Sequence record: PQ850622.1
DNA: 64,000 nucleotides
Reading direction: 5' to 3' (one strand)
Source: Escherichia phage OliverMaurmann_Bas86
A program made the translations under genes and the position numbers. This document shows positions 5,220-44,090 of the stretch, piece by piece. The notes under the pieces were generated by a model, which was given only the letters and a program-made list of their open reading frames with translations, ran no database searches and was not told the DNA's origin. Numbering within the stretch: position 1 is the stretch's first letter; each line of letters begins with the position of its first letter.

Positions 5220-6278
5220 ATGGCAAATCCAACTTTATTTGTATCGTACGACCAGAATGGTAAAAAACTTTCTTTTGCTAACTGGATTTCTGTCCTGTCT
5301 CCGCAAGACACTCCGTTTGTGTCTATGACTGGTAAAGAGTCTATTAACCAGACTATTTTCAGCTGGCAGACCGATGCTCTGGCGAGCGTAGATGCTAACA
5401 ACGCCCACGTCGAAGGCTCTCGTGCTGAAGACGGTGAAATGAAACCGACTGTAATCAAGTCCAACGTTACTCAGATTCTGCGTAAAGTTGTTCGTGTTTC
5501 TGATACTGCTAACACCACCGCTAACTACGGTCGTGGTCGTGAGCTGATGTATCAGCTGGAGAAGAAAGGTAAAGAGATTAAGCGTGACCTCGAGAAAATC
5601 TTGCTGTCCGGTCAGGCTCGTACCGACATTCTGGCAGACCAGTATCTGACTAACTCTGCAACTGATCCTGCTGTTGTAGGTCAGAACGATACTTCAGCTG
5701 CACGTAAGACTGGTGCTTTCCAGTTCCTGTGTGCACACAATGGTGTTGCTGGTGGTGTTGTTAAGAAAGAAGATGGTCCTGCTGACCCGGATACCGGTGC
5801 AGTAACTGTTAAAGTTGCACAGAATGCTTCTAACCCGACTTCTAACATCGGTTTTGATGAAGCTGACATCTTTGATATGACTCTGCAATTGTATACCGCT
5901 GGTTCTGAAGCAGACATCATCATGATTAACCCTGCTCACGCTAATATCTTTGCTAAGCTTCAGGAAAACTCTGTTGGTTCTCGTCAGCGTATCTTTGAGA
6001 ACACCAAACAGTTCATCTATGAAGTTAACAGCATCACTGACCCGCTGGGCCAGAGCTATAAAATCATCGTTAACCGTTGGATGCCTGCTGATGCAGTTTA
6101 CTTCTTCCGCAGCTCTGACTGGACTCAGATGGTTCTTCGTGCTCCGAAACGTACTGAACTGGCGAAAGATGGTTCTTACGAGAAATGGATGATCGAAATG
6201 GAAGTTGGTCTGCGTCACCGCAACCCGTATGCTTCCGGTGTACTGTTCACCGCTGCGGGAAAGGTGGAAGCGGCGTAA
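5220..6278 (+). CDS. Major capsid protein
   Basis: 352 aa ORF following scaffold; strong RBS (TAGGAGC); size and position typical of HK97-fold capsid protein. Confidence 0.8.
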   Translation: MANPTLFVSYDQNGKKLSFANWISVLSPQDTPFVSMTGKESINQTIFSWQTDALASVDANNAHVEGSRAEDGEMKPTVIKSNVTQILRKVVRVSDTANTTANYGRGRELMYQLEKKGKEIKRDLEKILLSGQARTDILADQYLTNSATDPAVVGQNDTSAARKTGAFQFLCAHNGVAGGVVKKEDGPADPDTGAVTVKVAQNASNPTSNIGFDEADIFDMTLQLYTAGSEADIIMINPAHANIFAKLQENSVGSRQRIFENTKQFIYEVNSITDPLGQSYKIIVNRWMPADAVYFFRSSDWTQMVLRAPKRTELAKDGSYEKWMIEMEVGLRHRNPYASGVLFTAAGKVEAA

Positions 6279-7642
6279 CAGTAGATTCCGTAACTGTTAG
6301 TCCTTCGTCGGTTGCAAGCCTTCCGACGGGGGCTACTCAGCAGTTTACAGCTACAGCAGAAATGAGCGACGGCTCCACAAGCACAACCGGATTTAATTGG
6401 TCCGTTGAAGGCGGTGGGGCTGTTTCTGTTTCTGGGCTATATACTGCACCGAGTGCGTCGCAAGAAACCCCAGCAACTATTACGGCAACTAAGGGCAGTA
6501 AAACAGGTACTGCTACAGTTCAATCTGTTTTTGAACCTGCTACTATCGAAGCTAAAGCCAACATCACAGGCAAGGTTGGTGGAAGCACTACAGCCTTTAC
6601 TACAATGTTCACATCAACTAATTCTTCGGCAGAAGATTATTCTTTTGTTGTGTCTCCAACATCAGCAGGAACTGTCAGTGCAGCAGGAGTTTTAACTTTG
6701 AGTAACAATGCAACAGGTACAGTTACTGTTAAAGCTACCCATAAAACTCAATCAGGAGTTGAAGCCACTGTAACCTTTACAGGTGTTGTTGCCAAAGCGG
6801 CTATTACTGGAAAAACAGTCACGGGTAAAATTGGGGGCGATACTGTTGCGTTTGCTGATCTATTTACAGCAACAAACTCTTCCGCAGCCAATTACAACTT
6901 CGTAGCTAACCCTTCTGGGATGACTACCTCTATCAACACTAACACTGGACTTGTTACTTTATCGGCTAATGCTACAGGTGATGTAACAATTACAGCTACC
7001 CACAAAACTCAAACCTCAGTTACTGCTACAGGGACCATCAGTGGTGTAGTCCCTAAAGCCACTATCACAGGTAAATCTCTTACCGGTAAAGTTGGTGGTG
7101 ATGTGATTCCTTTCGCGGACATGTTCACCAGTAACAAACCAGCATCAGAATTCAACTACGTGTTGACTCCGACTGGTGATGTAGGTGAAATTAACACTAC
7201 TACAGGTGCACTGACTCTCTTAGATGCTCCTACAGATGAGCTTATTAGTGTTAAAGCTACCCATAAAACTCAAACTTCTGTAACGGCAACCGCTACAATC
7301 ACAGCTACTCCGAAACTTACGGGCCTCGTTGCTTCTAGTGTTTCTAATACTGTGGTCGTAGGTGCTCCAGAGAACCCTCTTGCTACAGACTCCATCACAA
7401 TCACTGACTCTACTCAACCGGGTGTAGTTCGTTTTGATGGTGTACCTCAGGGTTCAGTAGTTGGTGCTCTGTCTTATGACGCAGAAGGTACTGATGTGGG
7501 TTTGATGGAAGTTGATTTAACAGGTCAGGTGTTGACAATCACTTTATCAGCTCCGATTACCAGTGAAGATACTAAAATCTCAATCAGAACTAACCCAGCC
7601 TCTACAATATTCCGTACTTATGTTGTCAAGTCTGGTGCTTAA
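5220..7642 (+). CDS. Capsid protein with C-terminal Ig-like (Big_2-type) extension, predicted product of -1 programmed ribosomal frameshift at GGGAAAG (6257-6263)
   Basis: Slippery heptamer G_GGA_AAG lies in the capsid frame 5 codons before its stop; the -1 frame is open to 7642 and encodes Ig-like repeats (VTVDSVTVSPSSV...TGATQQFTATAEMSDG...). Confidence 0.5.
6550..7320 (+). repeat. Three tandem coding repeats (~80-87 codons each) inside the Ig-like extension
   Basis: Protein repeats each ending ...ATHKTQ(S/T)(G/S)V(E/T)AT... and beginning (A/P)KA.ITGK...; in-frame, not CRISPR-like. Confidence 0.6.
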
Positions 7643-7742: not shown

Positions 7743-8255
7743 ATGGCAATGCCTGACTTAAAGGGTGTTTTTACTTATAACCAAGACACTGGACACCTCT
7801 TTTGGTCTATGAGTAATGTTTATAATAAGAAGAAAGGACAGAGAGCTGGTTGCATTAATAACAAAGGCTACAGAGTTCTGACCTTTAAAAATAAATCTTA
7901 TTTAGAGCACAGAATCATTGCAGAGTTATTCTTACCTAAAGTGGAAGGAAAGAATCAGATTAATCATAAGAATGGGATTAAGGATGACAACCGCCTAGAA
8001 AACTTAGAATGGTGCACAGGTAGTGAGAACTGCTTACATGCTATTAGTATAGGTCTTAGAGAAGTGAAAAGTTTAGAGGAAAATCCAAACGCTAAACTTT
8101 CTAAAGAGGATGCTCTATTCTGTCTTCAGAACTATAAGCCTAGAAGCCGTCAGTTCGGAGCTAGAGCATTGGGTCGAAGATTTGGAGTATCTAAAAGTAC
8201 AATCAGCCTTCTTGTGAAAGGCGAAAACTGGAAGGAGTTATTATATGATGCCTGA
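7743..8255 (+). CDS. HNH homing endonuclease (HNH_3-type with N-terminal Y..DTG.L.W motif)
   Basis: 170 aa; motifs GYRVLTF...HRIIAELF...INHKNGIKDDNRLENLEW; preceded ~40 nt upstream by TAATGTATT. Confidence 0.8.
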   Translation: MAMPDLKGVFTYNQDTGHLFWSMSNVYNKKKGQRAGCINNKGYRVLTFKNKSYLEHRIIAELFLPKVEGKNQINHKNGIKDDNRLENLEWCTGSENCLHAISIGLREVKSLEENPNAKLSKEDALFCLQNYKPRSRQFGARALGRRFGVSKSTISLLVKGENWKELLYDA

Positions 8256-8988
8256 TGTTCAATATCCCATCAATACCTACGGATGGCTCAAGAAAGCTGT
8301 GTCCCTCTGGGCTGACAGGGATGATGATGAATTTGTTAATCAGATTCCAAACTTTATTAACTTTGCAGAGAAAGAAATCTATCGTAACTTACGAATTCCT
8401 CCTCTGGAAAAAGAAGTATATTTAGATATTAAAGATGGTGTGGCTTTTATTCCACCAGACTACTTAGAAGCTCAGTGGATGATGAGAGCAAGTAATGGAC
8501 ATATGTTCCGAGTAACTTCTCCAGAAGAGTTAGATTGGCTGAAAAGAAATAACTCAGTAAACCCAACTAACTGGAATCAGGGAGAAGTGAGTTTTACTAG
8601 GTTGGGAAGTCGGTTCCTGTTCTACCCAGCCATCAATGCTGATACTCCGGTCTACCCTGATGATGGAAGCCCTCTTATTCCAGCGGAGAATTCGGTAATT
8701 CTTAGCTATTATGCAGACCCTCCGGAGTTTCATGAGGATTCTGATACAAGTGCAATTTTAACAATAGCTCCAGAGCTTCTTCTATATTTCACATTACGTC
8801 ATGCAAGCTTATTTGTCCAAGATGATAATGGGGTTCAGAAGTGGTCTGCTTTAGGGAAAGCTATTCTAGATGAGGTAGTTGAGCAGAGTAAGAAAGCTGA
8901 ATACTCAGGCTCTCCTCTAGTTATTCCTAGAACTATTGACCGTCTTCACAGCTCTCGTGAGTTGTATGGAATCAAACACTACAGTTAA
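8245..8988 (+). CDS. Virion structural protein (function unassigned)
   Basis: 247 aa ORF with GAAGGAG RBS, between HNH insert and tail fiber genes. Confidence 0.45.
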   Translation: MMPDVQYPINTYGWLKKAVSLWADRDDDEFVNQIPNFINFAEKEIYRNLRIPPLEKEVYLDIKDGVAFIPPDYLEAQWMMRASNGHMFRVTSPEELDWLKRNNSVNPTNWNQGEVSFTRLGSRFLFYPAINADTPVYPDDGSPLIPAENSVILSYYADPPEFHEDSDTSAILTIAPELLLYFTLRHASLFVQDDNGVQKWSALGKAILDEVVEQSKKAEYSGSPLVIPRTIDRLHSSRELYGIKHYS

Positions 8989-13848: not shown

Positions 13849-14067
13849 ATGAAAATGATGAAACAGGTAACTTATGGTCTAGCTTGCTTAGGGACAGGTT
13901 TTGTGATTTCCACAGCAGTACCTGTAAATGCAGTAGGCTCTCATTCTATTATAGAAGCTCCTGTAGAGAAGCTTAGTTCTCAATGTAAACAAAGGACCAT
14001 TCAAAATAATTTGGTTGTTATTTGCCCAGACGCTCAATCTTCAGCTCTGAGAAAAATTCTTCCTTAA
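13849..14067 (+). CDS. Small protein with one N-terminal hydrophobic segment; holin candidate or secreted periplasmic protein
   Basis: 72 aa; MKMMKQ then ~20 hydrophobic residues, possible cleavage at VNA/VG; two Cys in C-terminal part; directly upstream of lysozyme gene. Confidence 0.4.
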   Translation: MKMMKQVTYGLACLGTGFVISTAVPVNAVGSHSIIEAPVEKLSSQCKQRTIQNNLVVICPDAQSSALRKILP

Positions 14068-14100: not shown

Positions 14101-14592
14101 ATGGACGCTATCGCATTGCCGCCTGTACAGATGAGCCTAAGTCCGGCTGGTATGGAGTTTATCATGAAGCATGAAGGCATGAGAACTAAAGCCTATAAAG
14201 ACTCCGCTGGAATCTGGACTATATGTGTAGGGGCTACGCGCGATATGAATGGGTATCCAGTAAGACAAGGATTAACGTATTCTATAGAGGATTGTCTAGC
14301 TCTGCTAGATAGAGACACACAAGACTCTGTTCGTGCTACTCAGAAAAACATAAGAGTTCCTATGCTAGCTCATGAATTTGATGCTGTCACTTCTTTCAAC
14401 TTTAATGTTGGTGGTGGTGCTTTGTCAGCTTCAAAACTTAGGAAAGTGATCAACGGAGATGTGAAGGGTGATGTTTACTCAGAGTTCTTACGTTGGGATA
14501 AGATAACTGTTAAAGGTGTAAAGCAGCGGAGTCCGGGACTTCACAATCGCAGGGTTGCAGAAGCAAATCTATACACTACAGGAAAATATTAA
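14101..14592 (+). CDS. Endolysin, T4-type lysozyme (GH24-like)
   Basis: 163 aa; FIMKHEGMRTKAYKDSAGIWTICVG matches the E...G...Y.D..G..TIG.G lysozyme signature; no N-terminal hydrophobic segment. Confidence 0.85.
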   Translation: MDAIALPPVQMSLSPAGMEFIMKHEGMRTKAYKDSAGIWTICVGATRDMNGYPVRQGLTYSIEDCLALLDRDTQDSVRATQKNIRVPMLAHEFDAVTSFNFNVGGGALSASKLRKVINGDVKGDVYSEFLRWDKITVKGVKQRSPGLHNRRVAEANLYTTGKY

Positions 14593-23354: not shown

Positions 23355-25022
23355 ATGCAACAAACTTCTTATGCGTATCTTCGCAGTCAAGACCCAAGAA
23401 ATCAGATTTATGGTGTTAAACAAGGGGCCGCTTCGGCCTCTCCATACATGGCAAGACCTGCTTACCCAGCTGCTGATGTTTCAATGTATAGTCAGAGACC
23501 TCCTGCCTCTCCTGTAGGTTTATCCTCTCTTGTTGCTACTGCTCAAGAAGACCAAGAAGCTATGTTAAATCCGGGATTTAGGCAGCGCCTTATGGAAGCA
23601 GAGAATCAAGGGACTCCTACAAGCCTTCAGGGTATTGATATTGGCGAACCAGCTCCTGCTATGAATAACCCAGATCTATCCTCTGATGAGGGTCTACAAG
23701 CTGCTGGGTTGATGCCTAGTGACCCACTTCCTGTTACTCCTCCTCGTAAACCTCTGGAAGAAACAGATAAAGAGTTCTCTCCAGTTCAGGTGGAACAGGC
23801 TCAGAATGTTATTAACACTTTAGCTAATAGTAATCCAGCTCCTGAAGGTATGGCTGGTGCAACTCGTGCTAAAGACCAAGAACGTATTAATAATGATATT
23901 ATGGAAGTAGCTAAAGCTAAAGATCCAGCACAAGCTTGGAATGAGCTTCAGAAGCAACCGTTCTACCAGAAGTCTAGTTTCTATACTGGCTTAATGGGTG
24001 TTGGTCTTTCTATCATGTCAGGTAAATCCCCTATTGAAGCTTTCCAGATTGGTTCTGGCTTAGCTGCTCAGGATGAAACTAAACAACAACTAGAAGCCAA
24101 CCGTGATGCTCTGTTAGAACAAGGCTATTCTCAAGATTCAGTTGCTGCTGCAATTGCTTCGGGAGATCCCTCCCTTCTCAAAATGCGTCAGATTAGTCCT
24201 CAGGAGAAGATGGCTCTTGCTGCTCAGGATGAAGAACGTGCTAATCGTGAGTGGGATAGACGTCAACAGATTCAAGAGAATTCGATGCGGGAACGTGCTG
24301 CTGAAACTCGTCGTGCTGCTGAAGAACGTGCTAATGCTCAGTTCGAGAAACAGAAAGAACTTATTGGATATCGTGATCAAGTTAAAGCAGAGCGTGCAGA
24401 GAAGGCTGCTCAGAGCTTTACTTTCAACCCTAAAGAAGTTCGTCTGGCTCAGAACACAGCAGAAGGTACAGTTGCTAAGCAGTGGGCAGAGAAAGCAGGT
24501 CTGTTCAACCAGTCTCATAAGGACTTGGATTTAGCAGACAAAGCTGTTAAGGATAAGGATTACCAAACTGCTCGTTCTGCTTACATGCAGGCTATTATGA
24601 ACTCCGCAAGGGCAGAAATTGGTGCTAACCGTTCTCTCCAAGCTGATGACTTGGCTCACTTTGCAGAAGACCCGTCAATCTTCGTTAAGGTTGGTAATAC
24701 TTGGTCCCTTAAAGCAGGCTATCGTCCTTCTGATGCTGCTCTGTCATATGCTCGTAAGCAGGCAACTGTTGGTGCTACTTCCGCTGAGAAAGGTGTGAAG
24801 GATGCTAAGAAAGCAACAATTGAGGCATATATCGGTTCTGGTATGGATAAGAAAAGAGCTACAGCTCTTGTCAACCGTGCTATCCCATCTGCTGGTTTCT
24901 ATGACCCATTCGGTACGTTTGAGAGTGAAGCTGAAGCAGCTGTTGGTGGAGATACTACAAATCCTCGCTTAACAGGTGCTCTTTCTTCTTCAGCGGCAGA
25001 TACGAGTTGGATGTTCCAGTAA
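23355..25022 (+). CDS. Internal virion protein (putative)
   Basis: 555 aa ORF in late block; Pro/Ala-rich N-terminus, charged helical middle. Confidence 0.45.
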   Translation: MQQTSYAYLRSQDPRNQIYGVKQGAASASPYMARPAYPAADVSMYSQRPPASPVGLSSLVATAQEDQEAMLNPGFRQRLMEAENQGTPTSLQGIDIGEPAPAMNNPDLSSDEGLQAAGLMPSDPLPVTPPRKPLEETDKEFSPVQVEQAQNVINTLANSNPAPEGMAGATRAKDQERINNDIMEVAKAKDPAQAWNELQKQPFYQKSSFYTGLMGVGLSIMSGKSPIEAFQIGSGLAAQDETKQQLEANRDALLEQGYSQDSVAAAIASGDPSLLKMRQISPQEKMALAAQDEERANREWDRRQQIQENSMRERAAETRRAAEERANAQFEKQKELIGYRDQVKAERAEKAAQSFTFNPKEVRLAQNTAEGTVAKQWAEKAGLFNQSHKDLDLADKAVKDKDYQTARSAYMQAIMNSARAEIGANRSLQADDLAHFAEDPSIFVKVGNTWSLKAGYRPSDAALSYARKQATVGATSAEKGVKDAKKATIEAYIGSGMDKKRATALVNRAIPSAGFYDPFGTFESEAEAAVGGDTTNPRLTGALSSSAADTSWMFQ

Positions 25023-25047
25023 TCTAAGACCTAAGTCCTATCTCTTA

Positions 25048-25056
25048 TAATGTATA
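25048..25056 (+). promoter_or_regulatory. TAATGTATA motif, candidate phage sigma-dependent promoter element
   Basis: Exact 9-mer ~37 nt upstream of the 25093 ATG; reverse complement also found upstream of the SSB gene. Confidence 0.35.
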
Positions 25057-25092
25057 TAGGAGGTAGGACATTTTTATTTATAAGGAGACGTT

Positions 25093-28000
25093 ATGGCTAA
25101 TTTAAAATCGTGGGAAGAAGCTTCCAAAGCTCCTGCGTATCTGAATGCCTCTCCAGAGCAACAGGCTCAAATGAGAGAACAATACAAGGCAGCAGGGGGC
25201 ACTATTCCTGAGACTCAACCACAAGAGCAACCACAACAAGAAGAACGAGGTGTTATTGGGGAGTTTGCTCAAGGTGTGTCTAACGCTCTTCAATCAGGTG
25301 GTGCTAACATTGCAGCTAGTGCTGCTAAAGGTTTAGGTGGGCTGGTAGAGATTGGTGAAAACCTAACTGGTTCGGAAACAAGCTATGGTAAGCGCATTCA
25401 AGAGAACTCTAAGCAATTGCTGGAAGAACGCTTATCCAAGATAGAAGATGGTTTTGGTAAAACAGCTGGTCAGTATGCTGGTGTTGCTGCTGATATTGGT
25501 TTGACAGTTGCAAACCCTGCTGTTGCTGCTGCTGTTATCGCAGCTCGTGAAACAGGTCGTGCTTATGCTGATCAAACTCCTAAAGAAGATGAAGATAAGT
25601 CAATCTTAGATGCTGCTCTTGTTGGTGGTGCTAACTACGCTGCTCAGAAGATACTTCCGGGCATGACTGGTACAGCTTCTACTACTCTAGGTCGTGTAGG
25701 ACAAAGCGTAGCCTCTAACGCGGTTGCTGGTGCTAAGGGTGGTGCTATTGTTGGTGCTGCTGAAGCTCAGAACAAATATGGAGATGATACTACTCTAGCT
25801 AATGTCTTAGAAGGGGCTATTGAAGAAGGTGCACTCGGTGCCGCTTATGGTGGGGCGATTGGTGGGGTTCATGGGTTAATAAGTCGTCCTAGTCCTCAAG
25901 TGTTTGATCGTACTCCTGAGCATGTTAAGACTGACATTGCTGCTGAAGATGAGGCTATTCGTAAAGCTGCTAACGCTGATGAACTTCGTGAAGCCTATGC
26001 TAAAGCTGAGAATGCTAATGCTGCCTCTGCTTTAAACCTTCTGGATGAAAATGGTTTCCGAATCACAGATGCAGTTGCTATGGACTCTCCTGCTGTTCAA
26101 CGTATATTAAATACAGATCAAAATCGTGCAGAGAAGGCTGCTACGGTTCAGAAAGATAGTTCTAACGTTCCCGGTCTTAATCCTTTAGCTTCTCCTAAGA
26201 AGACTCAAGGTAAAGCTTTTGCTGACAATGAGTACAACCAGAAACAAGCTGTGGCAATGAAAGATGCAATGGCTGACTACACTAAAGATAACACCAAAGC
26301 CCTTACTGATGTTCTAGACAATCTAGACCGAGAGTTAGTAGCTCTGAGAGCAAGTGGTGATTTTACTGGTAGTGCTATTGACATTAAAAACCGTACTCAA
26401 GCTGATCGTGATTTTATTGATGCTTATAAAACTTTTTACAGTGAAGCTAATCGTTTCAAAGCTCGTGATGGTGAAGACCTAAACAACTTCATTGATAAAG
26501 CTACTCAGTTGCAGAAGCTCTCTGAAAATGTTTCTCCAGAAATGAAGAAGGCCATTGGTGGATTAAAGAAACTAAAAGGTATGCCTGAAGGTTTTAACCC
26601 TATCCAAGATGCTTTCACTCTGAATAATACAGCTAAGTTCATGAGTAACCAAGACCGTGGTTGGACCTCTCTGACTGATGACGGTTTTCGTGAAGCTCCG
26701 GCTCCTGTGTTAGTTAAGAATCCTCTCGGTGCAGCCAAGTATGTACTTAACCGCTTTACTTCCGATCGTGCTCGTGCTCAACGTGAGAAGCAACAGTCAG
26801 CTAATAGCGAAGCTATCCGCTCTTTGGCTAGGGCTGATTTAGAAGTACAACGAGCTAGGACTCAGGCTGAAGAAGCAAGAGCAAAAATGGAAGAAGAACC
26901 AACCACAGAAGACATCAAATTCCGTACTCAAAATGATGCACCTTCCGAACCGGTTCGTGAGGAGCCTTCTGCTACTACTGTGACAGAAGAAATTCCTTCC
27001 TCTCCAGCTCCAACTGAAACACCTCTTACTGCGAGGGATCTAGTTGCTCAAAGACGTGCTCTCCAACAAGCAGAGCTTAGACGTCAAGAAACTGAAGCTG
27101 CTCAGGCTCAAGAAAGTGCTACACCAGAACCTGAACCACAGCAAGAAGCTCTTACAGCTAGAGAATTAGTAGCTCAGCGTAGGGCTGTAGCAGAGGCTAA
27201 GAAACGTCAAGAGGCAGAGGAAGCAGAACGTGCTAAAGAAGCTCCTGAGGAGGCCGTAGAAGAGCCTAAAGAGAAACCTGAGCCATTACCTGCTCGTGCT
27301 CCTAAAGCTCCTGAGAAGGCTCCTGAGCCTGTTAAACCATCACTCGGTGTAGAGCGTCTGGCTTCTATGTCAACTGCTGCCCGTCAGGCAACAAAAGATC
27401 GTGCTGACCGATTTGCTCGTTCTTTGTATTCGGCTGCTGCTAAAGCTAAAGCTACTGCGGAAAACTTCCTTTCTTATAAAGGAGACCCTAAAGAGCTTAT
27501 GCGTCGTATCCGTCAGGAAGACCAAGCAAACAACACACAGCGTCATGAAGAGATGGCTAGAAATCAACTGGCTTCCCAGCAAGGCATTGCTTCTGCTAAA
27601 TCTCAACATGTTCGTGCCTCTTTTGCTGATTGGGTAAAAGAACGTGGGTTGCCTTCTGATATCGCTACTAAAGCCTTACGGGCTGAAGAGAAAGGTTTAG
27701 GTGGGAACGTCACAAGCCTAGATTCACTGAAACGAAGAGCTGAACGTTTATATCAGAAACAGAGAGATGATGAATTTGACCGTCTCTATCGAGAGGCTCT
27801 GGAAGAGAATAAAGCGTTTGACAAGAAAGATGCTCCTAAACTGGTAGATCAGAAGAAAGAACTTCAGGATGAAATTGGTACACTGCTTGATGCAGAACCT
27901 TTACGTCCTGCTCAGAAAGATGCTATGCGTAAGATCATGGAAGACTTTGTGGAGAGTAAGTTTAAATCTTCAGAGAAAGCTGGAAGGGTTGAGGCTTTGG

Positions 28001-30768: not shown

Positions 30769-31587
30769 TTACCAAGTTTTATCTAACCATGACCAATCAA
30801 AGAGGTCACCTTCAGCTTGTCCAACGAAGAGCAATCGAGCATTTTCTAACATCTTAGCTTCTGCTTCTTCCTCGAACCTTTTATAGTATTCCATTCGTAT
30901 AATATGATAAAGAGTCCACTTATCGAATACCTTCTCAATAAGTTTGATTGCAGCCTTACTACCAATGCCTTTACGACGCATTACTAGATTGCCACCCCAC
31001 ATCATTTCAACCTTCTCACCGCATCCGGGAATGTTATCTGTGCTATCCCCGATCAGCATCTGGTAGAAGAAGTTCTGCCATGCTACTTCTTCTGATACAT
31101 AGTGAGGAGGTACTTCTTTCTGTCTCTCCCCGCAAGCCCAACGGTAATGCCATCCGGGAGTGATTAACAAGTCTTTATCACGGGTGCAAATGATAGTGTT
31201 CTTATCACGTCTCTGTCTTTCAGCTAGGGCATCATCCGCCTCTCTCCCAAAAACTTCTACGTATTCGTAATTCTCTTTAATGTAATCACTGACATTTTGC
31301 CAGTGGTGAGGTCTTTCTCCCGGTGGTCGATTAGCTTTATAACCTTGCTGCTTAGCAATATCAAACCGAAAATTACCACCTTCGCTGAAGTAAAAGATTG
31401 TTTTCTCACAACCAGACCTTGCAATGATTACATCTATTTTATGTTGAAGTCGTTCAATCAAGAATCCATAATCAACTGGAACACGACCTGTGTCTAGAAA
31501 AGGATGCTCTTGTGTAAGAGCACCGACTTCATATCGCAGAACATCTGCATCCACAATTGCTACTTCAGGATAGATTACATCAGACAT
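30769..31587 (-). CDS. 5'-3' exonuclease / flap endonuclease
   Basis: H3TH-type motif LIGDSTDNIPG; ORF track begins at TTG 31611, but ATG 31587 (MSDVIYPEVAIVDADVL) has a GGAGAG RBS and is preferred. Confidence 0.8.
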   Translation of the reverse strand: MSDVIYPEVAIVDADVLRYEVGALTQEHPFLDTGRVPVDYGFLIERLQHKIDVIIARSGCEKTIFYFSEGGNFRFDIAKQQGYKANRPPGERPHHWQNVSDYIKENYEYVEVFGREADDALAERQRRDKNTIICTRDKDLLITPGWHYRWACGERQKEVPPHYVSEEVAWQNFFYQMLIGDSTDNIPGCGEKVEMMWGGNLVMRRKGIGSKAAIKLIEKVFDKWTLYHIIRMEYYKRFEEEAEAKMLENARLLFVGQAEGDLFDWSWLDKTW

Positions 31588-32176
31588 AGAGATCTCTCCG
31601 TGTCTCTTCAATAATCCACTCTAAATCATCAACTGCCTCTTCTACAGAACGGTCATTAAAGAGGAGGTAGGTTGGTAGGTTTGTTCCTTCAATATAAGAA
31701 CGGGAGTCCCCTTCAAAGGAGCAGCCATCTCGGAGAATCTGAACTACTCGAACATAGAAGTGTTTCTCTAGTTCTTCAACTTCAGCTTTGAACCCACCAT
31801 CAGAGAAGACGATAACATCATTCTGTGATGGGATACGTTGTTGAATACTGCTAACAGCAAGTTTACCCATGCAGGTCTCACCAAACATAGGTTTCAGATA
31901 ATCCTCACTAGTTGCAATCATCAAGTCTCGAACTGACTTACCGCCCCATTCAGGACGGATATGTTCTTTCCACTCACGGTCGTTGTACAGCTCCATGAAC
32001 TTATAAAGAGGGAGACCTAATGCAGCAGCAGCCACCCGATACATAGGCTCCTTAAAAGCCTTTACATGCGGTCTAAACTCAGTGTTACCAGCGGTCTTCT
32101 CTAACCAAGCATTAGCGATTGTATCTTTACCACAACCCGGAGGTCCATTTAGAATTACTACTAATGGTTTACTCAT
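31580..32176 (-). CDS. P-loop nucleotide kinase (dNMP kinase-like)
   Basis: 198 aa; Walker A VVILNGPPGCGKDT near N-terminus, resembling phage dNMP kinases. Confidence 0.55.
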   Translation of the reverse strand: MSKPLVVILNGPPGCGKDTIANAWLEKTAGNTEFRPHVKAFKEPMYRVAAAALGLPLYKFMELYNDREWKEHIRPEWGGKSVRDLMIATSEDYLKPMFGETCMGKLAVSSIQQRIPSQNDVIVFSDGGFKAEVEELEKHFYVRVVQILRDGCSFEGDSRSYIEGTNLPTYLLFNDRSVEEAVDDLEWIIEETRRDLYV

Positions 32177-32826
32177 TATTGAATCATCCCTTGAAGATCT
32201 TCTTTATCAAAGTGCTTCTCTACTACCGCTTCATACAGATCACGATTCTCCGAATAACGGCGATAGAAGGTTCCGTGTGAAATTCCCAGCTCTTGTTGGA
32301 TGTGATCATGAGGAATACCGAGGAAGAGCATTGAGAACATACTTGCCATCTTGCGGTTTTCCATAATATCACTTAGGTCTTGGAAGAAGAAAAAGATTCT
32401 AGATTCCAAGAATGGGTCTCCAGTAGAATCATGCTTATCCATAGCAATCTCTAAAGGACTTTCCCATGAATTCATCTCGGGAGGTCTAAACATATCAGCC
32501 TCTGGAATAGAATAGATACGTCTGTCTCCAACTGTCTGACGATTAGAACGAATCGACCAGATGATATTCTTCACACGATAAGTCATGTGTTCAATATCTT
32601 TTTCATCGGTAAGCAGTAGTTCTTCTTGCTTTGCAAATACAAAACGCCAAGAGTTCAGTAACACTTCCTGAGCAACATCCTCTGCTTCGTGATAATCTTT
32701 AATGTCGTACATAAAATACTTATGCACAACTTTCCAATTCTCTCGATAGAATTCATCGAAGGTTGGGTAGTACTTAATAGGTATGCCATGAATACGATAG
32801 CGTGTGGGTGTTGTCTTTTTCTTCAT
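32176..32826 (-). CDS. Phage-encoded sigma-70-family sigma factor
   Basis: 216 aa; region-2-like [12 protein letters not shown] and C-terminal HTH-like [16 protein letters not shown]. Confidence 0.7.
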
Positions 32827-32850
32827 AAGTCATCCTTAACTTACTTTACA

Positions 32851-33075
32851 TTAAACTACACAGAATAAATACATTGCTGTTTCAGGGGAAGGTATGTGGT
32901 CACTAGGATATCTAACCCTAATCCACTCATCATCTTCTGCTACATAATAAGCCCAATAAGACCCATTTTCATTAATAAAGAACTTGAAGGTACAACCAAA
33001 GATTTGGTTATTGTGTTCCCATACTGCATGAAACTGAGTAACACCTTCTGGTATTGTAAGTTCCGCTCTGATCAT
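32851..33075 (-). CDS. Hypothetical protein
   Basis: 74 aa ORF. Confidence 0.35.
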   Translation of the reverse strand: MIRAELTIPEGVTQFHAVWEHNNQIFGCTFKFFINENGSYWAYYVAEDDEWIRVRYPSDHIPSPETAMYLFCVV

Positions 33076-33371
33076 TGTATTCCTCTCTCCTTTAGAGCTT
33101 TAAGCAAACCGTTGTGGTTAGCGGCACAGGTTGTATAATTGTCCTGATACCACTCGAGTGTTGTTGCAAGTGCTACTCCCTGTCCACTCTGAAGTAAAGG
33201 GAGGTCTACATCACATTCAGCTTTTAGGTTTGTTGGTAAGGGCATTAGCTGCCTGCTGTTGTCGCTCGTTGAACAAGCCATCAAACTAGAAGCGAGCAAA
33301 ATCACCAAACAACTCTTTTGCTTTTTCTTTGTAAGCATTTTCTGCACCTTCTTGAGTGCTATGATAACCAA
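33072..33371 (-). CDS. Lipoprotein (o-spanin candidate); true start probably the internal Met (MLTKKKQK...)
   Basis: Signal peptide with lipobox L-M-A-C (KKKQKSCLVILLASSLMAC); small mature domain with 3 Cys. Confidence 0.4.
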   Translation of the reverse strand: MVIIALKKVQKMLTKKKQKSCLVILLASSLMACSTSDNSRQLMPLPTNLKAECDVDLPLLQSGQGVALATTLEWYQDNYTTCAANHNGLLKALKERGIQ

Positions 33372-33780
33372 GCCAAATTACTTTGTTTTGATATCCGATA
33401 CGAGCACTCCATTTATTAATATCTGACCTGTATCCTACACCTTTTATTCCAGTTAAAGAGTTCTTTTGAACTATTTTATTGGCATTGTTGAGGACAGGTG
33501 TTGCTTTTCTTAGATTGCTCCAAGAGTTATTAGACTTATCTAAATCTTTATGGTCTATTTGGAAATCGGGAATTTCTCCAGTTTTTATATACCAAGCAAC
33601 TCGGTGAGCTTTGTATGTCTTTCTCTGAAAATTCAATGTTACATAACCAGCTTTTGTTTTACACCCTGCAACCTTTCCTGCGAGTCTTGAGTTCCACTGA
33701 GCGCTCTTATCTTTAGAATGTTTCCAGTACAGAAGACCGGAAGCCTCGTCATAAGACAGATATTTAATTAATTCTTTAAT
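33286..33780 (-). CDS. HNH homing endonuclease (HNH_3 + AP2-like), predicted ATT start
   Basis: ORF track starts at TTG 33636, but the frame stays open upstream and encodes the conserved N-terminal YLSYDEASGLLYW module; only candidate initiator is ATT 33780-33778, 7 nt after GGAGG. Confidence 0.55.
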   Translation of the reverse strand: MKELIKYLSYDEASGLLYWKHSKDKSAQWNSRLAGKVAGCKTKAGYVTLNFQRKTYKAHRVAWYIKTGEIPDFQIDHKDLDKSNNSWSNLRKATPVLNNANKIVQKNSLTGIKGVGYRSDINKWSARIGYQNKVIWLGYHSTQEGAENAYKEKAKELFGDFARF

Positions 33781-34109
33781 TTCAGTGCCTCCGCTGCTTG
33801 TTGTTGTCGTTCATTGAAAAGTCCTACATACTCATCACTAGCACACACATTGTAAAAAACTGGCTTAGTCTTTTCATAATGCATCTCTTTGTAAATAGTT
33901 TCCGTGTTCTTCTTCCAGTTAGATAAACCAGTCAGAACTTTCTGAGCCACTTCATCAGCAGCCTTAGCTCTCTCAACCTCAATCTCTTGCTGTTTCTTCT
34001 CTTGGTCAAGAGCATTACTATCACTTCTGTATTGCTCAAACTTGACACCACCAAAGAAAACCAGAGCTGTGAAGATTAAAAAACCTATATTGTTTTGAAG
34101 CTTTTCCAT
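33768..34109 (-). CDS. Membrane-anchored coiled-coil protein (i-spanin candidate)
   Basis: N-terminal TM segment IGFLIFTALVFFGG then charged coiled coil; ATG 34109 with GGAG RBS preferred over the GTG 34133 of the ORF track, which lies inside a terminator hairpin. Confidence 0.45.
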   Translation of the reverse strand: MEKLQNNIGFLIFTALVFFGGVKFEQYRSDSNALDQEKKQQEIEVERAKAADEVAQKVLTGLSNWKKNTETIYKEMHYEKTKPVFYNVCASDEYVGLFNERQQQAAEALKLKN

Positions 34110-34122
34110 TTTAACTCCAACG

Positions 34123-34145
34123 AAAAAAGCCACCCGAAGGTGGCT
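34123..34145 (-). terminator. Rho-independent terminator after SSB gene (AGCCACC-UUCG-GGUGGCU + U6 on - strand)
   Basis: Read directly; near-identical hairpin recurs at 37031-37054. Confidence 0.6.
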
Positions 34146-34167
34146 AAGCTATTACAAGGAGAGATTC

Positions 34168-34908
34168 TTAGAATGGGCTATCATCTTCTTCAAAGGTTGA
34201 TTGCGGCTCTTCGTTAATGGTAGGAATACTTGGAGTAGCATCTTTCTGTTCAGTGTCAGAAGCTTTAGTAACTTCACGACCAGCCAGAGGGATATTCTTA
34301 GCATCGTTAGCTTGAGTCAAGAGGTTACGTTGGAATGGGAAGATTGCTTGATAAGCAGCTAAGTTAGCGTCAGTCTCAGCATACGGTTCGAAGAAGATCA
34401 ACTCACTACGAGGAGCACCTACCGCGTCACGATATTTAGTCGGGATTGGAGTGATGCTTTTAATGGAGTTTTTCTTCTCACCAGCTTTATTGGTGTAAGA
34501 GTTAACCAGAATGTTAACAGGCTGACCTAACAGCATATCTTTAAACCAACCCAAATCACCTTTCAGTGCTTGAACACTTGGGTCGATCATTTTAATCAGA
34601 TTTAGAATACCAGAGTTCTTAGCTCGTGGGTTTACATCAAAAGATTTAAACTGGCAAGCAGGACGAGGGTCCAGAGGTTTGCCTTCATTATCAGTCCCTG
34701 TTGCATCTACGCCAATCAGCTCAAAAGCTAAGTCCATACGGAAAGCTGGGTTCTTAGGAGTAACTGCTTTGGTTTTAGGGTCAATCCAAGGGTCACGATT
34801 GTGAACACCCAAACCTACAACACGAACAATACGTGCTTCGTACTCACCATCAGGGATTACATCGTAGTTGGATTTACGGGATACAGACAGTTCAGGGATC
34901 ATAGACAT
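34168..34908 (-). CDS. ssb: Single-stranded DNA-binding protein
   Basis: 246 aa; acidic C-terminal tail ending EEDDSPF, like the SSB C-terminal DDDIPF-type interaction tail. Confidence 0.65.
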   Translation of the reverse strand: MSMIPELSVSRKSNYDVIPDGEYEARIVRVVGLGVHNRDPWIDPKTKAVTPKNPAFRMDLAFELIGVDATGTDNEGKPLDPRPACQFKSFDVNPRAKNSGILNLIKMIDPSVQALKGDLGWFKDMLLGQPVNILVNSYTNKAGEKKNSIKSITPIPTKYRDAVGAPRSELIFFEPYAETDANLAAYQAIFPFQRNLLTQANDAKNIPLAGREVTKASDTEQKDATPSIPTINEEPQSTFEEDDSPF

Positions 34909-34967: not shown

Positions 34968-34976
34968 TATACATTA
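34968..34976 (-). promoter_or_regulatory. TAATGTATA motif (on - strand), candidate promoter element for SSB
   Basis: Exact 9-mer in coding orientation ~60 nt upstream of SSB ATG. Confidence 0.35.
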
Positions 34977-43624: not shown

Positions 43625-44090
43625 TTATGTAAGTCTCCTTGACTTTATTATATTCCCTAGAGGCTTCTTCTATGGTTGAGAAGAGTCCTATGTGCTTAGA
43701 TTTAAATACCGCCCGGTAAGCAATAGAGCCACTTTTCCTTCTATGGACAGTCACTCCAATCACTCCGGTTGATAAATTATTACTCTGAGCTACTTTGTTT
43801 AGGCCATTTCCTGATCTAGTAGTCCCCCTAAGATTCTCTCTTTTGTTGTTTATCCTGTTGCGGTCTATGTGATCTACTTCTTCAGGAAGCAATCCAGTGT
43901 CCCACCAGTAAGCAAGTCGATGAGCGTAGTATCTAGCACCTTTATAAACGATTCTCAAATACCCATTGGTATTTACAGAACCAGCTATAGACCCTTTGTG
44001 TCCTTTTCCATAAGTTTTAACCCATCGGAAATCTCCAGTCAAAGGGTCGTAATCAAGAGCTTCTTTTATTGACGGGTCAATATCATTCAT
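43599..44090 (-). CDS. HNH homing endonuclease (HNH_3 + AP2-like)
   Basis: 163 aa; YDPLTGDFRW, GYLRIVYKGARYYAHRLAYWW...VDHIDRNRINN. Confidence 0.75.
   Translation of the reverse strand: MNDIDPSIKEALDYDPLTGDFRWVKTYGKGHKGSIAGSVNTNGYLRIVYKGARYYAHRLAYWWDTGLLPEEVDHIDRNRINNKRENLRGTTRSGNGLNKVAQSNNLSTGVIGVTVHRRKSGSIAYRAVFKSKHIGLFSTIEEASREYNKVKETYINDNQSFIN

Follow-up and report, generated by a model that had tools for sequence, protein, structure and literature searches.

Spanins in which the gene of the outer-membrane partner (o-spanin) overlaps that of the inner-membrane partner (i-spanin) are known from several phages close to the one studied here. The spanins of phiEco32, ECBP2, KBNP1711 and NJ01 are catalogued as overlapped two-component systems by Kongari et al. 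2018 (PMC6139136), who assign the i-spanins to the 'JH2' family and the o-spanins to a four-member family (their Tables 3 and 4). The same authors, comparing T5 with Shivani and phiR201, described a putative GIY-YIG endonuclease that separates otherwise overlapping spanins, and pointed out that the new N-terminus of the o-spanin in this T5-like case must still encode the lipoylation signal; theirs was the sole relevant paper found in our literature search on spanins and homing endonucleases. Here we describe a locus in Escherichia phage OliverMaurmann_Bas86 (Bas86; sequence record PQ850622.1) which very probably holds a two-component spanin pair into which a free-standing cassette with an HNH homing-endonuclease gene has been inserted. 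All positions refer to the window, i.e., the whole stretch of 64,000 nucleotides (nt) that was analysed. It comes from a phage of the Gordonclarkvirinae (phiEco32-like), and its positions 32800-34400 match 98 phage records, all of them phiEco32-group coliphages or Shigella phages, the closest being SU7, Bas87 and PAS59 (about 94-95% identity); compared with ECBP2, KBNP1711 and other Gordonclarkvirinae, the spanin region has a DNA identity of 79-97%. A T5-like phage, which the genes for a dNMP (deoxynucleoside monophosphate) kinase and a flap endonuclease had first suggested, is ruled out by these matches.

Comparison with described spanin pairs and homing endonucleases

The spanins of phiEco32, ECBP2, KBNP1711 and NJ01 are direct orthologues of the Bas86 pair, with 72-94% identity in the i-spanin and a near-identical mature o-spanin that has the same invariant cysteines, and the genes occupy the same neighbourhood, between a gene for a protein of 246 amino acids (aa) and the genes for a sigma factor and a deoxynucleoside monophosphate (dNMP) kinase, far from the endolysin gene. 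In these four phages, however, there is a 116-nt overlap between the two genes, and the signal peptide of the o-spanin (MKRLSQFF…MSAC) is encoded in the +1 frame relative to the i-spanin gene, whereas in Bas86 the genes are 429 nt apart with the HNH gene alone between them (the 'separated' class, as in Shivani), and the last 18 residues of the i-spanin as well as the entire signal peptide of the o-spanin come from the cassette. The overlap is general among relatives without the HNH gene: at all eight HNH-free loci (phiEco32, ECBP2, KBNP1711, NJ01, two further contigs and two GenBank phages) the o-spanin gene starts within the i-spanin gene, in its +1 frame, with an overlap of 116-131 nt and a signal peptide of the form M[KR][RK]L[SN]QFF…M(S/N)(M/L)S(A/S)C, and both spanin open reading frames (ORFs) are conserved in every relative examined. 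Therefore, the HNH gene split a formerly overlapping pair. An earlier reading of this DNA, made from the sequence only, had proposed a candidate spanin pair split by a homing endonuclease and had named adjacency of the two genes in HNH-free relatives as a check; the genes there turned out to overlap, which is more than adjacency, and the proposal is further borne out by the match of the i-spanin to phrog_1152 ('Rz-like spanin', E=3.4e-33) and by the orthology to the catalogued pairs. The RefSeq record of SU7 labels the same three genes Rz-like spanin, HNH endonuclease and O-spanin, and the case is largely anticipated by this existing annotation and by one published analogue; the SU7 genome paper mentions neither spanins nor HNH genes nor lysis genes.

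[quoted passage not shown] However, the phage family is unrelated, and the endonuclease is assigned to the GIY-YIG type by Kongari et al. 2018 (a hypothetical protein in the Shivani record) as opposed to HNH_3/AP2 in Bas86. In Shivani, 13 nt of the o-spanin gene overlap the endonuclease ORF, whereas in Bas86 the overlap amounts to 53 nt and takes in the Shine-Dalgarno motif and start codon as well as the n- and h-regions of the signal peptide. In addition, and unlike Shivani, the Bas86 site is found with two diverged versions of the cassette, and the direction of insertion is clear from the eight HNH-free relatives. The locus is, after T5 versus Shivani, a second and better-resolved case of a homing endonuclease turning overlapped spanins into separated ones, since it shows which way the event went and how both genes were rescued, and it illustrates the entanglement of mobile endonucleases with the genes of their hosts.

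The HNH protein itself resembles T5 hegI and other free-standing HNH_3/AP2 endonucleases, to which it is 41-43% identical over the full length, from residue 1 or 2, and with which it shares the layout of an HNH_3 and an AP2-like domain, a length of about 165 aa, and the lack of an intron or intein. These relatives have ordinary ATG starts and lie between genes, whereas the HNH gene of Bas86 has an apparent ATT start (ATC in variant B, the second version of the cassette) and its ends double as coding sequence for two genes of the host phage. With lambda Rz/Rz1, the Bas86 pair shares a predicted architecture, namely a type II inner-membrane protein of the helix-linker-helix type and a small outer-membrane lipoprotein, with periplasmic cysteines in both, and an o-spanin gene whose ancestral reading frame was +1 relative to the i-spanin gene. 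However, no sequence similarity between the two pairs was detectable and no Rz/Rz1 Pfam model reached threshold; Rz1 is a proline-rich peptide of 40 aa, whereas the mature o-spanin of Bas86 has 67 aa and three prolines, and the lambda genes are embedded, whereas the ancestral layout in Bas86 was overlapped; the Bas86 pair is also unlinked to the holin and endolysin genes.

Spanin genes and predicted proteins

The i-spanin gene (33768..34109, minus strand) encodes a protein of 113 aa from an ATG start. A predicted transmembrane (TM) segment at codons 8-22 (IGFLIFTALVFFGGV; 34044..34088, minus strand) averages 2.4 on the Kyte-Doolittle hydropathy scale across its 15 residues, and the hydropathy scan revealed no second hydrophobic stretch beyond it, in agreement with the N-terminal TM segment that had been claimed from the sequence. 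The coiled coil claimed along with it is supported as a helical structure only, by an AlphaFold2 model of low confidence (predicted local distance difference test, pLDDT, 62.5) based on an alignment of 26 sequences; this model is all-helical, with helices at residues 2-79 and 92-111 and a linker at residues 80-91, and the linker contains Cys89, which is invariant in 26/26 aligned sequences.

The o-spanin gene (33072..33338, minus strand) encodes a precursor of 88 aa and a mature lipoprotein of 67 aa, matches phrog_2425 (E=2.4e-23) and has the same extent as the 'O-spanin' gene in the RefSeq record of SU7. It had been read from the sequence as an ORF of 99 aa with a TTG start (33371..33072); the frame is indeed open, but the start is most likely ATG 33338, which lies 6 nt after AAGGTG, is kept in all alleles of variant A (the version of Bas86), and is the start used for SU7. 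TTG 33371 was rejected, since it is absent in sequence L019 and the Shine-Dalgarno motif sits before ATG 33338. The precursor begins with MLTKKKQKSCLVILLASSLMAC followed by STSD and displays a basic n-region, a hydrophobic core, the lipobox LMAC and a serine (not aspartate) at position +2. The lipobox had been recognised correctly, as it fits the pattern [ILMFTV][^REKD][GAS]C, and so had the three cysteines of the mature domain (positions 1, 21 and 50), a count that includes the lipidated cysteine. All seven aligned sequences have C21 and C50, the three full-length ones also have the lipobox cysteine, and most remaining residues of the mature o-spanin are likewise invariant across the alignment.

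In the records of E20-1, KM01, EK010, UKE3 and Bas87, the o-spanin is mostly annotated as a 'hypothetical protein' of 57 aa from an internal methionine (MPLPTNLK…), which drops the signal peptide and the lipobox, and in KM01 it is labelled 'Appr-1-p processing enzyme family protein'. The 57-aa o-spanin, the KM01 label and the spliced i-spanin in the record of Bas87 (see below) look like annotation errors. For the Gordonclarkvirinae, the annotation can be fixed as follows: an o-spanin of 88 aa, an unspliced i-spanin gene ending at 33768, and an HNH gene that probably starts with ATT or ATC.

Anatomy of the inserted cassette

Alignment with the HNH-free UKE3 and VTCC211 and the HNH-carrying SU7, E20-1, KM01 and EK010 delimited a cassette of about 547 nt (33279..33825, minus strand), in place of which the HNH-free relatives have 2 nt (CA), its boundaries being ambiguous by about 2 nt. 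The HNH-free target sequence reads …GATGAGTATGTCAGCTTGTTCAACGAGCG…, with the junction between GATGAGTATGT and CAGCTTGTTCAACGAGCG. The insertion point follows i-spanin codon 95, in helix 2, and lies two codons before the lipobox cysteine in the o-spanin frame. A plain insertion at this site would truncate both spanins; the cassette instead supplies both missing ends and keeps both spanin genes whole without splicing.

At the i-spanin side, the first 57 nt of the cassette (33768..33824, minus strand) encode a replacement C-terminus (GLFNERQQQAAEALKLKN-stop), which constitutes most of helix 2. Over 14 codons, the new and the old tail differ in 12/42 nt, yet 13/14 residues are identical, with nine synonymous changes versus one non-synonymous change, which indicates that the new tail is protein-coding and under purifying selection. 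The GLFNERQQQAAEALKLKN tail was also found in sequences P0007, P0017 and L020, and its codons hold the GGAGG motif and the ATT codon of the HNH gene. At the o-spanin side, the cassette provides a new signal peptide (MLTKKKQKSCLVILLASSLMA; 33276..33338, minus strand), next to which stands the codon of the lipobox cysteine (33275..33273). According to the frame analysis, 53 nt of the o-spanin gene (33338..33286) lie within the HNH ORF in its +1 frame: the last 18 or so HNH codons (…ENAYKEKAKELFGDFARF-stop) give MLTKKKQKSCLVILLASS in the +1 reading, which runs into LMAC and the unchanged mature o-spanin, and the same 3' end of the cassette also brings the Shine-Dalgarno motif and the ATG of the o-spanin gene.

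Traces of the ancestral arrangement are present at both flanks. A stump of the ancestral o-spanin signal peptide (MKRLSQFFTMCVLVMSM; 33824..33877, minus strand) is found in the +1 frame within the i-spanin gene and is closed by a TAG created at the insertion junction (33826..33824); the intact ancestral ORF, ending in the lipobox MSAC, is present in sequences L002-L008. What is left of the ancestral i-spanin tail (33217..33279, minus strand; GLFNERQQQAANALTNKPKS-stop in the old frame) is now translated solely in the frame of the o-spanin, of whose mature form it makes up the N-terminus.

The persistence of the old tail downstream of the insert, where it could be joined in frame, would also fit a self-splicing group I-type intron that carries the HNH gene, splicing of which would rejoin i-spanin codon ~95 to the old tail (33279..33217) and restore the overlap. 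HNH genes occur within phage group I introns. However, a search of 32900-34300 against Rfam (4227 families) gave no intron match at E<=10 but only spurious matches to small nucleolar and small RNAs, and the fold energy of the insert RNA is unremarkable (z = -1.25). The homology-supported HNH ORF takes up nearly the entire 547-nt insert, and the ~52 nt (about 45 + 7) that remain leave no room for a ribozyme core. Moreover, the 5' 45 nt are selected at the protein level in the i-spanin frame, and this frame has an in-frame stop in both cassette variants. The ancestral o-spanin frame meets the TAG at the junction, and with most in-frame joins the o-spanin would still lack its former signal peptide, whereas a complete alternative signal peptide, with Shine-Dalgarno motif and start codon, is conserved in 14 alleles and makes splicing unnecessary; both spanin ORFs are complete as they stand.

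The HNH endonuclease gene

The HNH gene (33286..33780, minus strand) encodes a protein of 164 aa with an HNH_3 and an AP2-like domain if it starts at ATT 33780, and its frame is open from 33810 to 33286. It scored 52.6 bits against Pfam HNH_3 (cut-off 24.8) and matched phrog_99 with E=1.7e-44; the AP2 domain stayed below its Pfam cut-off of 33.3, with scores of 30.0 for the 116-aa ORF with a TTG start and 28.0 for the full protein of 164 aa. The first canonical start (ATG, GTG or TTG) in this frame is TTG 33636, but the 48 codons that precede it align in tblastn with full-length HNH homologues, including T5 hegI, from residue 1, and TTG 33636 was rejected as the start because these 48 residues would be lost. 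A GGAGG Shine-Dalgarno motif (33788..33792, minus strand) precedes ATT 33780 by 7 nt and lies among the codons of the new i-spanin tail. This motif and the 48 aligning codons make a start at ATT 33780 plausible and, judging from these features, it is probably the one used (ATC in variant B). The sequence-only reading had thus placed an ATT-start HNH gene correctly between the two spanin genes, with a start that is plausible.

Directly upstream of the HNH motif, a patch of the gene (33630-33690, minus strand) is hypervariable between Bas86 (GCKTKAGYVTLNFQRKTYKAHRV) and SU7 (GCKATDGYTVITYQYKQYKAHRI), with an identity of 65-81% as against more than 90% in the rest of the cassette; it may be a specificity-related segment. 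Two relatives of the HNH gene are found elsewhere in the window. An HNH-type ORF of 170 aa (7743-8255, plus strand), with 31% identity to the first 90 residues of the spanin-locus HNH protein, lies between a gene for an immunoglobulin-domain, head-decoration-like protein (6185..7642) and the next virion gene (8245..8988). Since Bas87 has only about 100 nt of intergenic DNA in its place, this ORF looks like a further homing-endonuclease insertion specific to Bas86. An HNH paralogue at 43629-44057 (minus strand) is 33% identical over residues 8-158 of the spanin-locus protein and, judging from the annotation of Bas87, probably lies beside the thymidylate synthase gene.

A second version of the cassette and its spread

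Variant B of the cassette, present in E20-1, EK010 and KM01, is inserted at exactly the same junction, and its HNH gene is 67% identical to that of Bas86 in protein and 72% in DNA. Its i-spanin tail reads SLFNQRQEEAKRVLKSKE-stop, the signal peptide in the +1 frame is (GTG)HIKKKLLSCTGILLAFSLSAC, and GAGGG, 7 nt and ATC occupy the position homologous to GGAGG/ATT of Bas86. In 14/14 HNH-carrying alleles of both variants, the HNH frame (164-175 codons) is open and the o-spanin ORF with its signal peptide is intact, the start codon being situated 21 codons before the cysteine; the i-spanin tail is intact in each of the 13 alleles whose sequence reaches it. One of the 14 is a contig with a mature o-spanin only 72% identical to that of Bas86. 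Because the signal peptide is intact in all 14 alleles, although the two variants are only 72% identical in DNA, the new o-spanin signal peptide is, as far as conservation can tell, real. The +1 frame of four HNH homologues from elsewhere (T5 hegI, phiEB49 gp51, S147, and one from a Vibrio phage) contains no signal-peptide-like sequence.

A search of 5.8 billion proteins revealed a cassette-type tail in 12 of the 26 i-spanin clusters, and both tail types occurred on both major i-spanin backgrounds (MEKLQNN… and MQNTLSDN…). Each of the seven metagenomic loci retrieved for cassette-tail alleles has the HNH gene, and IMG/VR yielded six related loci only. Among the 98 locus-matching records, the cassette is present in six distinct phages (10 records), always at the same junction. 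Between Bas86 and Bas87 there are no mismatches at 33300-33799 and one mismatch in each of the adjoining 100-nt bins, compared with 6-23 mismatches per 100 nt at 32800-33199 and 8-15 at 33900-34099; similarly, E20-1 and KM01 are 91-98% identical from the middle of the i-spanin gene to the end of the o-spanin gene, and mostly 70-85% upstream. These sharp identity tracts, together with the occurrence of both cassette types on both backgrounds, indicate a recent lateral spread, and such tracts would be expected from homing with co-conversion. Among the HNH-free relatives, the insertion target is near-invariant, because it is constrained in two reading frames, and homing endonucleases would favour conserved sequence such as this dual-coding overlap.

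Proposed explanation and alternatives

The gene structures, their conservation, and the presence/absence polymorphism of the cassette are observed, and the following steps may be proposed to connect them. From the spanin paradigm (lambda Rz/Rz1; PMC6139136), the i-spanin would be a type II inner-membrane protein with an N-terminal TM anchor, and the o-spanin would carry its lipid on precursor residue Cys22 and, with serine at +2, be sorted to the outer membrane. The two proteins would link across the periplasm through their periplasmic domains, with disulfides of the conserved cysteines stabilising the complex, and would disrupt the outer membrane after the endolysin has cut the peptidoglycan. 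The HNH enzyme, weakly translated from ATT, would cut HNH-free alleles in the dual-coding overlap during co-infection, and repair would copy the entire cassette with its flanks from the HNH-carrying allele into the cut one.

We somewhat favour the further view that the cassette became entrenched by supplying gene ends which the phage needs, i.e., the recoded helix 2 of the i-spanin and the overprinted ribosome-binding site, start codon and signal peptide of the o-spanin. As the latter three are overprinted on the C-terminal codons of the HNH gene, a clean deletion of this gene would destroy the o-spanin, and the only way to lose an entrenched cassette would be conversion with an HNH-free allele as donor, and this allele would be cut by the HNH enzyme. 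If true, the locus would represent a compact natural case of a signal peptide born by overprinting, and of a selfish element that is hard to lose through dependency and not through a toxin. The understanding of spanin action is unchanged by these results, and their residual interest is evolutionary (overprinting, entrenchment), not mechanistic.

Several points weigh against the interpretation of the locus as a spanin pair with a mobile HNH cassette. Pfam and NCBIfam scans of the i-spanin and the o-spanin gave only sub-threshold noise, phrog_2425, which the o-spanin matches, carries the label 'unknown function', and the i-spanin model is of low confidence, as stated above; the spanin annotation rests on predicted architecture and on homology to other predicted spanins, and our literature search found no experimental report on the phiEco32-like spanin family. 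The endonuclease activity and the cleavage site of the HNH protein are likewise putative, and its gene has no canonical start at the N-terminus that homology supports, and so could be poorly expressed or decaying. Finally, in the curated GenBank record of Bas87, the Rz-like spanin gene is given as two joined pieces on either side of the HNH gene.

The full-length N-terminus lacks an ATG, GTG or TTG, and a start at the first canonical codon would cost 48 residues; together with the AP2 score under the Pfam threshold, this could also mean that the HNH ORF is an inactive relic, fixed and domesticated as a spacer which is no longer mobile and serves only to encode the 5' end of the o-spanin gene; the need of the o-spanin for the 3' end of this ORF would preserve the DNA even without nuclease activity. 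We regard this as unlikely, however, as the full frame of 164-175 codons is open in all 14 alleles, the order of Shine-Dalgarno motif, 7 nt and AT[T/C] has been kept at the homologous position in both variants, and the identity tracts are sharp in otherwise diverged genomes, with both cassette types on both i-spanin backgrounds.

It is very unlikely that the HNH insertion crippled one or both spanin genes and that these are now decaying remnants, with lysis completed without spanin or by another route. The o-spanin did lose its original signal peptide, and automatic gene callers often give only the 57-aa fragment without one, but both spanin ORFs are intact in the 14 HNH-carrying alleles, which comprise two diverged variants and several backgrounds, Cys 21 and 50 and most other residues of the mature o-spanin are invariant, and the replacement tail of the i-spanin is under purifying selection. 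The position of the spanin genes far from those of the holin and the endolysin, which might be taken as a sign of decay, is the norm of the phiEco32-like spanin family, and the T4 spanin genes are also located away from the endolysin gene (PMC6139136). A spliced i-spanin is the least credible of the alternatives and highly improbable: in addition to the evidence from the insert given above, the BASEL paper neither discusses the join in Bas87 nor cites evidence for it, and this joined coding sequence is probably wrong, since no group I intron is detectable. The spanin pair interrupted by a free-standing HNH cassette therefore remains the preferred explanation.

Genomic setting of the spanin locus

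The genes of the spanin locus are all on the minus strand, within the replication/nucleotide-metabolism arm of the genome. Their upstream neighbours are the 246-aa gene, of unknown function, and a phosphoesterase gene, and downstream follow an ORF of 74 aa and the genes for a phage sigma factor, the dNMP kinase and a 5'-exonuclease. In Shivani (23630-25827), as in Bas86 (31580-34109), the spanin pair lies in a nucleotide-metabolism region near a dNMP kinase gene and not with holin and endolysin, a shared location that is possibly coincidental in these unrelated phages. The endolysin gene of Bas86 (14101..14592, plus strand; Pfam Phage_lysozyme, E=9.6e-31) is about 18.5 kilobases away on the opposite strand, and neither spanin gene is therefore adjacent to it, as had already been noted from the sequence; Bas87 has a holin and an endolysin annotated at the homologous place. 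The ORF annotated as 'holin' in Bas87 corresponds to an ORF of 72 aa directly upstream of the endolysin gene (13849-14067, plus strand), which matches no Pfam or NCBIfam family and has one N-terminal hydrophobic segment, so resembling a signal-anchor or secreted protein more than a typical holin with multiple TM segments; a lipobox in this protein (…YGLAC…) was considered and rejected because the pattern did not fit.

A strong terminator-like hairpin (AGCCACCTTCGGGTGGCT) with a T-run (34123..34145, minus strand) ends 2 nt before the ribosome-binding site of the i-spanin gene. Further upstream, about 60 nt before the 246-aa gene, there is an exact match to TAATGTATA (34976..34968, minus strand), at which the SU7 record annotates a promoter. 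We take TAATGTATA to be the (late) promoter motif of the phage sigma factor of phiEco32, which gives no direct information on the timing of spanin expression. Given the hairpin just before the ribosome-binding site of the i-spanin gene and the promoter motif upstream of the 246-aa gene, transcription of the spanin genes may depend on read-through of the hairpin.

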